A stretch of DNA of 64,000 nt from an uncultured Chlorobiaceae bacterium. GTDB lineage: Bacteria; Bacteroidota; Chlorobiia; Chlorobiales; Chlorobiaceae. How positions within the stretch are numbered: position 1 is the first letter of the stretch; the number at the start of each line of letters is the position of its first letter. The stretch spans positions 4,920 through 68,919 of the forward strand of contig CAIMPI010000042.1 in assembly GCA_903843305.1 (NCBI GenBank), in the 5' to 3' direction. Below, piece after piece: positions 29,057 through 30,699 of this stretch. The notes under the pieces were generated by a model. It was not told the origin of the DNA. It was given only the letters and a program-made list of their open reading frames with translations, and searched no databases. The position numbers were made by a program, and so were the translations under genes.

Positions 29057-29160
29057 AGGTTGCTCTTATTACCGGAATTACCGGCCAGGATGGATCGTAT
29101 CTTGCCGAATTCCTTCTTGAAAAAGGCTACGAAGTACACGGTACCAAGGTCACTGAGTAG
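29053..29160 (+). pseudogene. gmd: Truncated GDP-mannose 4,6-dehydratase (gmd') fragment
   Basis: [32 protein letters not shown] matches the N-terminus of the intact gmd at 37382. It then runs into a repeat and stops (VTE*). Confidence 0.9.
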
Positions 29161-29217
29161 GGCACCAGCCCGTATACCCCGGTCACTGAGTAGGGCGCTA
29201 GCCCGTATCGAAGTGCC
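29148..29217 (+). repeat. Tandem pair of REP-like units GGTCACTGAGTAGGGC-N4-GCCCGTAT(CGAAGTGCC)
   Basis: Copies at 29148-29175 and 29181-29217. Each has GTAG running into a GGGC/GCCC hairpin. Confidence 0.8.
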
Positions 29218-29224
29218 CATATCC

Positions 29225-29291
29225 GGGAACGCCGAGCTCCAGCTCGGCACATTCTCCTCTTTTTCTGCAGAGCTGGGCCTCCGGCGTTCCC
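29225..29291. repeat. Inverted REP doublet (REPIN-like)
   Basis: GGGAACGCCGAGCTCCAGCTCGGCA (29225-29249) and a degenerate inverted copy whose reverse complement is GGGAACGCCGGAGGCCCAGCTCTGCA (29266-29291), separated by a 16-nt pyrimidine-rich spacer. Confidence 0.65.
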
Positions 29292-29446
29292 AGGTCTCTT
29301 GCACACGTTGTCCTTTTGATCATTAAATGTGTTTTGAAAGTATTTTGTTTTTACAGTCATCCCATATATATTTGAAACTGCGGAGACTGATCATGGTTTG
29401 ACATGAAAGCTATTGGGTGTCCTGAAATTGATCTTGCCTGAATAAA

Positions 29447-30427
29447 ATGCCAAATATGGATATTTCGAACGATCAATACGACAGCCCGTGGAAAGAGGTC
29501 ATTGAACGCTATTTTCCGGAGTTTATGGCGTTTTATTTCCCTGATGCTCATGCCGAAATTGATTGGTCAAAAGAGCATGTTTTTCTCGATCAGGAGCTGC
29601 GGGCAGTGGTGCAGGATGCTGAGTTGGGAAAGCGCTTTGTAGACCGGCTGGTCAGGGTGAATGTGCTGAATGGCGGCGAAAGCTGGATCTACATCCACGT
29701 TGAGGTGCAAGGCACAAAGCAAGCTGAATTTGCCGAACGGATGTTTATCTACAACTACCGTCTTTTCGATCGATACAAAAGGCCTGTAGCGAGTTTGGCT
29801 GTGCTTGCTGATGAAAACAAGGAGTGGAAACCAGCCTCTTATGGCTTTGCCGTGCTTGGGTGCCGCCATACCCTTGAATTTCCTGTTGCCAAGCTGACCG
29901 ATTATGCGGAGAAGGTGGATGAACTGCTGGAGTCGGATAATGCTTTTGGATTGATTACGGTGGCGCATATCCTGACACAACAAACCCGAAAACAGCATCA
30001 GGAACGGTATGAAGCGAAACTGCGTTTGGTACGACTACTGTATCAACGGCAGTGGAATAAACAGCGTGTCATCGATTTGTTTAGTGTTTTGGATTGGTTA
30101 ATGCAACTGCCAGAATGGTTAAATAGTCAGGTTTGGCAAGAACTTGAAACGATAGAGGAGAGTAATAAAGTGCAATATATCACAAGTGTAGAAAGAATTG
30201 GCATAGCTAAAGGTTTAGCCAAAGGTCGAGTAGAGGGCCGAGTAGAGGGCCGAGTAGAGGGCCGAGTAGAAGGCGAATCCCGGTTTCTGAGACGGCTGCT
30301 TGAACGCCGCTTTGGAGTTTTACCTCAATGGGCATCAGACCAGTTAACGAGCGCTTCCGAAAAACAGTTAGAAGCGTGGGGAGAGGCGCTTCTGACTGCG
30401 CCGACGCTGGAGGCTGTTTTCAACTGA
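29447..30427 (+). CDS. Rpn-family recombination-promoting nuclease/putative transposase (PD-(D/E)xK, DUF4351-like C-terminus)
   Basis: YDSPWKEVIERYFPEF, FVDRLVRV, IHVEVQG, MFIYNYRLFDRY and PVASLAVLAD motifs; C-terminal EG repeats followed by LERRFG.LP. Confidence 0.85.
   Translation: MPNMDISNDQYDSPWKEVIERYFPEFMAFYFPDAHAEIDWSKEHVFLDQELRAVVQDAELGKRFVDRLVRVNVLNGGESWIYIHVEVQGTKQAEFAERMFIYNYRLFDRYKRPVASLAVLADENKEWKPASYGFAVLGCRHTLEFPVAKLTDYAEKVDELLESDNAFGLITVAHILTQQTRKQHQERYEAKLRLVRLLYQRQWNKQRVIDLFSVLDWLMQLPEWLNSQVWQELETIEESNKVQYITSVERIGIAKGLAKGRVEGRVEGRVEGRVEGESRFLRRLLERRFGVLPQWASDQLTSASEKQLEAWGEALLTAPTLEAVFN
30224..30271 (+). repeat. Four tandem 12-bp units (GGYCGAGTAGAR) encoding GRVE x4 inside the Rpn gene
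   Basis: GGTCGAGTAGAG GGCCGAGTAGAG GGCCGAGTAGAG GGCCGAGTAGAA. Confidence 0.9.
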
Positions 30428-30464
30428 CCAACCAGTCGTCGGGAATTTCTCTTGCCTGAATAAA

Positions 30465-30644
30465 ATGCCAAGTATGGATACTTCGAACGATCAATACGAC
30501 AGCCCATGGAAAGAGGTCATTGAACGCTATTTTCCGGAGTTTATGGCGTTTTATTTCCCTGATGCTTATGCCGAAATTGATTGGTCAAAAGAGCATGTTT
30601 TTCTCGATCAGGAGCTGCGGGCAGTGGTGCCGGTCACTGAGTAG
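30465..30644 (+). pseudogene. Truncated second copy of the Rpn gene (59 aa)
   Basis: MPSMDTSNDQYDSPWKEVIERYFPEFMAFYFPDAYAEIDWSKEHVFLDQELRAVV, then the repeat-derived PVTE*. Confidence 0.88.
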
Positions 30645-30699
30645 GCCGACAGCTACTTCTCTCGGTCACTGAGTAGGGCGAAGCCCGTATCGAAGTGCC
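30632..30699 (+). repeat. Second tandem pair of REP-like GGTCACTGAGTAG units
   Basis: GGTCACTGAGTAGGCCGACAGCTAC (30632-30656) and GGTCACTGAGTAGGGCGAAGCCCGTATCGAAGTGCC (30664-30699). Confidence 0.8.

Follow-up and report, generated by a model that had tools for sequence, protein, structure and literature searches.

Two pairs of a hairpin repeat lie at the broken ends of two genes in the DNA stretch analysed here, 64,000 nucleotides (nt) of contig CAIMPI010000042.1 from the genome of an uncultured Chlorobiaceae bacterium (NCBI GenBank assembly GCA_903843305.1; hereafter the window). The two genes are gmd', a fragment of a GDP-mannose 4,6-dehydratase gene, and rpn', a fragment of an rpn-like gene. 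Our analysis favours, with a probability of roughly 0.55, the reading that the repeat belongs to a GIY-YIG nuclease and that the 5' edge of a unit pair became a joint on two separate occasions. In the following, G000 denotes the genome of the window, the other G numbers its congeners, C a contig and L a locus.

Structure of the repeat unit

The 13-letter word GGTCACTGAGTAG occurred in four exact copies on the + strand of the window, at 29148, 29181, 30632 and 30664, and these formed two tandem pairs with spacings of 33 and 32 nt, as described in an earlier note made from the sequence alone. With up to two mismatches allowed, six matches were found compared with 1.0 expected, and none of 100 shuffles reached six. 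The further descriptions in that note, that three copies run into a GGGC/GCCC hairpin (units 1, 2 and 4) and that GTATCGAAGTGCC follows in the second unit of each pair, were also confirmed. GGTCACTGAGTAG is the 5' arm of a hairpin repeat of ~40 nt. The full unit spans ~40-45 nt and is complete only in the second unit of each pair (covariance-model matches in Table 1); in pair 1 it consists of the outer stem, GAGTAG, GGGC-GCTA-GCCC, CGTATCGA and AGTG. Within both pairs, the 5' edge of the complete unit again adjoins a truncated unit.

Searching the whole genome and related genomes for the motif, as the earlier note had suggested, returned ~35 complete copies in G000, so the motif is not unique to this locus. 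All copies were intergenic, and none lay within a real gene. The general layout of the unit is CCGGWC, a covarying outer stem of 4-7 bp, GAGTAG, a GSSC-GNA-GSSC mini-hairpin, CGTATCGA and the strand that closes the outer stem. Groups of units were often inverted or tandem with two subtypes alternating, resembling bacterial interspersed mosaic elements (BIMEs). Both stems covaried: 88% of the cells in the stem alignment were paired, compared with 72.5% in shuffles and 33-52% when the partner strand was slid, and 81 cells had changed on both sides. Across phyla, the outer stem was wholly exchanged in a compensatory way (GGTC/GACC, ATCCT/AGGGT, GGTT/AACC), and both loop sequences were identical.

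Of the 3-nt loops, 82% were GNA closed by C-G, and the C-GNA-G triloop is a classical stable mini-hairpin of DNA. G.T pairs outnumbered A.C pairs (25 vs 8), and the units had no bias in orientation relative to neighbouring genes. Because of these loops, pair counts and the absence of an orientation bias, we read the unit as a hairpin formed by one strand of DNA and not as an RNA. A scan of 28900-31400, which contains two complete units, with the Rfam covariance models at E <= 1 returned nothing relevant.

Shared sequence containing AATTTTGTAACTGC, located at G000 C33:17845-17906, C33:88150-88175, C49:9876-9927, C33:90699-90920 and C9:19054-19220, adjoins several units on their 3' side and stands free of units at two other places; it may mark the border of a further cassette or gene family. 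At G000 C9:92800-101000 (L003 2844-10941), clusters of units lay between successive toxin-antitoxin cassettes in a layout like that of a cassette array, in the order MazEF, cluster, AbiEii/AbiEi, cluster, ParE/Phd ... PIN/DUF2281, cluster. Integron attC sites were considered for this layout and rejected, as a GTTRRRY/RYYYAAC core is missing from the units and Actinomycetota carry the motif in abundance, no search for IntI being made. Type III toxin-antitoxin repeats, CRISPR repeats, hammerhead and other small ribozymes and the kink-turn were set aside, by inspection only, for mismatch with their consensus.

Distribution of the repeat and its partner gene

Within the genus, 17 of 61 species genomes carried units, mostly 8-35 copies each, and the remaining 44 had none. 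A pattern scan across one genome per prokaryotic species listed >120 stretches, compared with ~17 estimated by chance. Among the matches listed were Chloroflexota, Microbacteriaceae and other Actinomycetota, Treponema, Leptospira, Armatimonadota, Gallionella, Herminiimonas and Herbaspirillum (Betaproteobacteria included), Poribacteria, Peregrinibacteria, Bacteroidales and Chlorobiaceae; they also included identical units in Chlorobium and in metagenome-assembled genomes of Chlorobiaceae, which agrees with the stated taxon of the window.

An open reading frame (ORF) for a GIY-YIG protein of 96 aa was located between units in the congeners G004, G017, G049 (twice), G060 and G022. A unit adjoined the gene in G075, decayed copies of the gene were present on the unit-bearing contig of G043, and the gene was also found in G054. 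Orthologues with at least 85% identity occurred in 8 of the 17 unit-positive congeners vs none of the 44 unit-negative ones (Fisher p = 8e-6), the latter having only paralogous GIY-YIG types with <=41% identity. A homologue was likewise present in 10 of 12 carriers from other phyla. The eight best homologues from other phyla, 44-72% identical (Leptospira, Treponema, Agromyces, Rhodoglobus, Actinomycetota SAL1, Armatimonadetes, Herminiimonas and OW818698), all had units within ~500 nt, in most of them on both sides. Counting 5 congeners and the carriers from 8 other lineages together, the distance from unit to gene was ~100-250 nt, and units bracketed the gene in at least six lineages outside the genus.

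The 96-aa ORF of the relatives matches positions 1-76 of Pfam GIY-YIG and has a single domain, with the GIY, YIG, Arg and Glu positions conserved across phyla. Among solved structures, the UPF0213 proteins 1ZG2 and 1YWL come nearest to it, and with the other small GIY-YIG type of the genus it shares only 39% identity. An NCBIfam search with the protein returned no specific family, and phage records contained only distant GIY-YIG homologues (<=46% identity). From this genomic association, the assignment of the repeat family and the GIY-YIG gene to each other appears highly probable, and the unit is predicted to be the recognition repeat of a UPF0213-type GIY-YIG nuclease of 96 aa.

Rpn was also considered as the partner protein and rejected, as the rpn copies of relatives had no units nearby and rpn was present in unit-negative genomes. 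Clustering the ORFs within <=2.5 kb of the motif at 120 loci from other phyla revealed no common family, a blank explained by the sampling of only one to a few loci per genome. In the unit-negative congener G014 (C1:2851938-2855113), a gene for another small GIY-YIG protein (118-140 aa) was present in eight tandem copies, ~423 nt apart, and other unit-negative congeners had single genes of a GIY-YIG type that shares 39% identity with the unit-linked protein.

The two joints in the window

Pair 1 begins where the homology of gmd' to intact gmd ends, as the earlier note had placed it: the match to intact gmd (37382-38500) stops at 29147, and the gmd' ORF continues into the repeat up to a TAG at 29158-29160. 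Together, fcl1 and gmd' duplicate the fcl2-gmd module with 80% identity (80.5% in the self-match between 28096-29141 and 36425-37470), and since fcl2 and an intact gmd are present, the loss of gmd1 would be tolerable. Modules of the fcl1 type with an intact or near-intact gmd were found in G018:C10, G023:C16 and G023:C31. In all three, a repetitive extragenic palindromic (REP) sequence of the type associated with REP-associated tyrosine transposases (RAYTs) follows ~100-150 nt past the gmd stop, then TTCGGTGAGTATT and then CCGGTCACTGAGTAG... In the window, the long hairpin of the same REP (GGGAACGCCGAGCTCCAGCTCGG) adjoins pair 1, and in the relatives this REP separates gmd from the GIY-YIG-type unit. 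In G018:C10, the unit that follows the intact gmd was, together with its 3' flank, 96.7% identical to the second unit of pair 1; the same two-unit pair was present downstream of gmd in G023:C31 (L023 3331-3402), and positions 29325-29373 of the window were orthologous to the spacer downstream of gmd in G004.

The alignment with related loci proposed in the earlier note thus did reveal intact or near-intact gmd genes, but with the same repeat downstream of them. Because relatives carry the repeat in this position, pair 1 would be native to the region downstream of gmd1, and gmd' would then be the product of a deletion with its right end at the 5' edge of the pair. That a deletion of ~1.2 kb fused codon 32 of gmd1 to this edge is, judged from these alignments, very probable.

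The gmd beside an fcl1-type gene was also damaged in G023, by an insertion of 1.58 kb in the C16 copy (L024 2130-3709) and by an insertion of 750 nt and an internal deletion of 660 nt in the C31 copy (L023 1950-2696 and 2876). Such damage by other routes in a relative suggests that the redundant module decays repeatedly. On the gmd' side of the joint (29133-29153), GTACACGGTACCAAG|GTCAC agrees at 12 of 15 positions with the 5' flank GTATACGGCACTAAGTCCCC|GGTCGC of two units on C9 (G000 C9:93797-93824 and C9:95846-95873), and a similar flank occurs at C3:39874; this likeness could be due to chance or to a preferred context for joining.

The joint at pair 2 probably has a different history. The homology of rpn' does stop at ~30631, where the earlier note had set the end of the duplicated gene start; the simple truncation assumed there was not found, as rpn-like sequence resumes at 30707-30743. 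This continuation has 21 of 26 identities in local alignment, and an equally good score at any place in rpn was reached by only 3 of 1000 shuffles. Pair 2 matches pair 1 with 83% identity across 76 nt, 7 nt of which lie past the unit (29148-29223 against 30632-30705 in the self-match), and the copy ends at the base that matches the first paired base of the REP hairpin beside pair 1. The colinear rpn-like sequence after pair 2 indicates a patch of ~75 nt that would have replaced ~31-34 nt of rpn', and on these alignments pair 2 is probably a copy of pair 1, ~75 nt long, inserted into rpn'. The stop ...VTE* that the earlier note had seen in both broken ORFs was reproduced by translation of 29053-29160 and 30465-30644 (...LRAVVPVTE*), and the shared frame is not significant, since a stop occurs in two of the three frames in which the 13-mer can be read.

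The rpn-like gene is multi-copy in the genus, and the homology between paralogues has sharp edges, beginning ~20 nt ahead of the ATG and ending at the stop codon. In several genomes, rpn occurred as tandem copies and as scrambled fragments near toxin-antitoxin cassettes and gmd fragments; in the window, rpn homology covers 29426-30429, 30444-30631, 30707-30743 and 31255-31376. Among the relatives, units were not generally associated with rpn or hicBA, and the homology of the hicBA region to relatives begins at ~30730. The features of the locus are listed in Table 1.

Table 1. Features of the locus, with positions in the window.
Feature	Position	Strand	Evidence or remark
fcl1, GDP-fucose-synthase-like epimerase	28037..29056	+	Pfam Epimerase, E = 4e-66
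gmd', first 32 codons of GDP-mannose 4,6-dehydratase	29053..29147	+	Alignment to intact gmd, translation
Pair 1, first unit, incomplete	29148..29180	+	Broken after CCCGTAT; joined to gmd' at its 5' edge
Pair 1, second unit, complete	29177..29222	+	Covariance model R1, 54.3 bits, E = 2e-10
Long hairpin of RAYT-type REP GGGAACGCCGAGCTCCAGCTCGG	29220..29298	.	DNA fold -23.7 kcal/mol, z = -6.0
rpn-like gene, intact (PD-(D/E)XK Transposase_31 + DUF4351)	29447..30427	+	Pfam
rpn', 5' end (~190 nt) of second tandem rpn copy	30444..30631	+	95% identical to rpn; starts 16 nt after rpn
Pair 2	30632..30706	+	Complete unit 30660-30704; R1, 62.7 bits
rpn' continuation after pair 2	30707..30743	+	Colinear with rpn 29647-29672 and C44 paralogue
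hicB-hicA toxin-antitoxin cassette	30799..31247	+	Pfam HicA, E = 4e-19; 95% identical to G017:C127
Scrambled fragments, no unit	31255..31421	+	rpn 3' end 31255-31301, rpn middle 31308-31376, fcl 3' end 31369-31421
fcl2 and intact gmd	36420..38500	+	Pfam GDP_Man_Dehyd, E = 2e-155

Insertion at cobQ

A search among within-genome paralogues for further gene fragments at unit edges returned only gmd' and rpn', plus a full-length cobQ that ends in a unit. A unit and a short linker separate cobQ from cobD in the unit-positive genomes G000, G007 and G004, whereas the two genes overlap in an ATGA start/stop in the unit-free G006, G012 and G002. In G000 (C29:11171-11215, L010), the unit supplies the last four codons and the stop of full-length CobQ (...TDAE*, with the TAG of the unit). 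Judged from this comparison, the unit at the end of cobQ is an independent insertion. Of the suggestion in the earlier note that the repeat inserts into genes, the part that stands concerns pair 2 in rpn' and the unit at the end of cobQ; it does not apply to gmd, where a deletion of the gene ends at the repeat.

Possible mechanism and alternatives

Cutting and rejoining at the 5' edge appears to be the best, though unproven, mechanism, because the related nuclease SsnA nicks single-stranded DNA (ssDNA) just 5' of its repeat. To be bound by SsnA of Neisseria meningitidis, the hairpin repeat must be single-stranded, and the enzyme cuts a few nt upstream of it (Chenal et al. 2025, Nat Commun, PMC11893778). 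The nuclease studied here would in the same way nick ssDNA a few nt 5' of the unit, be it in an ancestor or donor, in incoming transforming DNA or at a replication fork, and the nicked end would then be joined illegitimately. In the first event, a deletion of ~1.2 kb would join codon 32 of gmd1 to the 5' edge of pair 1; in the second, a copy of pair 1, bounded by the 5' edge of the pair and by the foot of the RAYT-type REP hairpin next to it, would replace a stretch of rpn'. Neither joint is more than 3 nt away from the 5' edge of a unit, the place at which a nick by an Ssn-like enzyme would be expected. That the breaks at this edge were made by the nuclease itself is a tentative proposal, to which we give clearly less than even odds. 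More speculative, and in our view improbable, is a wider model in which UPF0213-type single-domain GIY-YIG proteins would be site-specific ssDNA nucleases tied to a hairpin module found across phyla, the 5' edge of which would be a programmed point of breaking and joining; short pieces of ssDNA, such as the ~75-nt piece in rpn', would be cut out and patched into breaks elsewhere. If true, such excision would provide a route both for the spread of the repeat and for the truncation or deletion of neighbouring genes.

Several observations weigh against the reading of the locus that we favour. The joints fall at different nucleotides, AAG|GTCAC and GTGC|CGGTCAC, which are 1-3 nt apart. The interval 29000-31500 contains ~9 novel joints, only 2 of them at units, and the others involve fragments of rpn and fcl; the ~7 unit-free joints indicate that this island would be prone to recombination anyway. 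The expected cut site is borrowed from a GIY-YIG subfamily that is merely related to the protein considered here. The DNA folding energy of a single unit is unexceptional (z about -1), and the published search pattern of the Ssn-related motif (SRM), HGTCWYN(0-2)YYVSBRHN(0-5)WNVSBRGN(0-2)RNCYNB, matched 0 of 33 units (+-15 nt). Among the relatives, no orthologous locus with the pre-insertion state of rpn' was found. The assembly of G000 also contained no orthologous nuclease gene. With ~35 units and no such gene in the assembly, the units here are orphans, and any cutting would have taken place in an ancestor or donor, or the gene would lie in an assembly gap.

Part of this evidence would equally be expected from generic illegitimate recombination in a decaying island, without a site-specific nuclease and with joints that are stimulated by the hairpins or merely coincidental. 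Hairpins would stall replication and favour slippage and deletion, and the rpn copies and toxin-antitoxin cassettes would keep the locus in flux. The ~7 joints without a unit fit such a process, as do the missing nuclease gene, the offset of 1-3 nt between the two joints and the decay of gmd1 by other means in relatives (the 1.58-kb insertion in G023:C16 and the internal deletion in G023:C31). Against it stand two independent joints, each at most 3 nt from one and the same edge of a single 75-nt element; a rough post-hoc estimate for 2 of 9 joints at edges gives P of 1e-3 to 5e-3, with ~0.6-1.2% of positions qualifying per joint. The 5' edge of the complete unit, moreover, adjoins a truncated unit inside both pairs, and the copied fragment, pair 2, starts at that edge. 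We therefore regard generic recombination as the less likely explanation, but as one with an appreciable share of the probability.

Much less probable are two explanations that concern the nature of the unit. In the model of the earlier note, the units were REPs mobilised by a RAYT, a Y1 transposase of the HUH class, that recognises GTAG beside a hairpin. Indeed, GTAG lies directly 5' of the inner hairpin, the clusters of alternating units are BIME-like and a RAYT does exist in the genome. This only classical RAYT (C41:1144-1893), however, is surrounded by, and contains, the different REP GGGAACGCCGAGCTCCAGCTCGG, of which 5 of the 14 genome copies lie in or around the RAYT gene (C41:590-1893, a REPtron), and neither C41 nor the surroundings of the second Y1_Tnp gene, on C2, contained a GAGTAG unit. 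The nearly complete carriers G022, G043, G049 and G060 have 8-20 units and no Y1_Tnp, which is also absent from 7 of 12 carriers in other phyla, and the units co-occur with and bracket the GIY-YIG gene rather than a RAYT. The RAYT model is thus largely refuted and has very little probability left, and what endures of the mobile repeat family that the note had proposed as remodelling genes is a dispersed hairpin family with BIME-like clusters, located at real recombination joints. A function of the unit as structured RNA (terminator, mRNA stabiliser or small ribozyme), with its place at gene ends reflecting a role in the 3'-UTR, is just as improbable. The strong covariation, the conserved internal loops, the excess of G.T over A.C pairs and the position of units at gene 3' ends, as at cobQ, would suit an RNA. 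Such a function is opposed by the lack of an Rfam match, the absence of orientation bias to flanking genes together with the frequency of inverted pairs, the C-GNA-G triloops, which are generally known as a signature of DNA mini-hairpins, and the partner, a nuclease gene with relatives that act on ssDNA rather than RNA.

Relation to known systems and significance

The closest parallel is the Ssn system with its NTS/SRM repeats. Both have a single-domain GIY-YIG protein of ~95 aa, the gene of which is bracketed by its own hairpin repeat; in both, the repeat is oriented, multi-copy, intergenic, clustered around variable genes and patchy across phyla, and some repeat-bearing genomes are without the gene. 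The systems differ in the motif, which is GAGTAG / GSSC-GNA-GSSC / CGTATCGA here and CGTCATTCCCGCG..CGCGGGAATCYRG in Ssn/NTS, and in the protein, as the nearest structures of the one considered here are UPF0213. The units also resemble REPs and BIMEs, REPINs and the superfamily of GTAG-tagged REPs (Di Nocera et al. 2013, PMC3733652) in their extragenic location, the GTAG beside a hairpin, the two subtypes that alternate in orientation, the head-to-head and tail-to-tail dimers and the tandem arrays. CGTC-type repeats were reported in Chlorobi in the same study (PMC3733652). Unlike the REP/RAYT systems, the units have no association with Y1 transposases and an inner stem of only 4 bp, and unlike REP families, which are usually lineage-specific, they keep their loops across phyla while the stems covary. 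In enterobacteria, REP sequences occur at the join-points of chromosomal rearrangements, where these small palindromic repeats mark the endpoints of duplications and deletions. Those join-points involve recombination between one REP and another, whereas one partner of each joint described here is unique coding sequence (gmd or rpn).

If our reading is true, the locus would be a warning for annotation that GTAG-tagged palindromes are not necessarily RAYT elements, with a true RAYT-type REP and a GIY-YIG-type repeat standing side by side here. The principle of a nuclease with its own hairpin repeat would then gain a second class of motif and a second protein subfamily (UPF0213-like) in at least 7 phyla, and a protein family of unknown function would gain a function that can be tested. 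The two joints would be natural cases in which a deletion and a patch insertion end exactly at such repeats, within a surface-polysaccharide locus, a kind of genome remodelling that was inferred only statistically in the Neisseria work.

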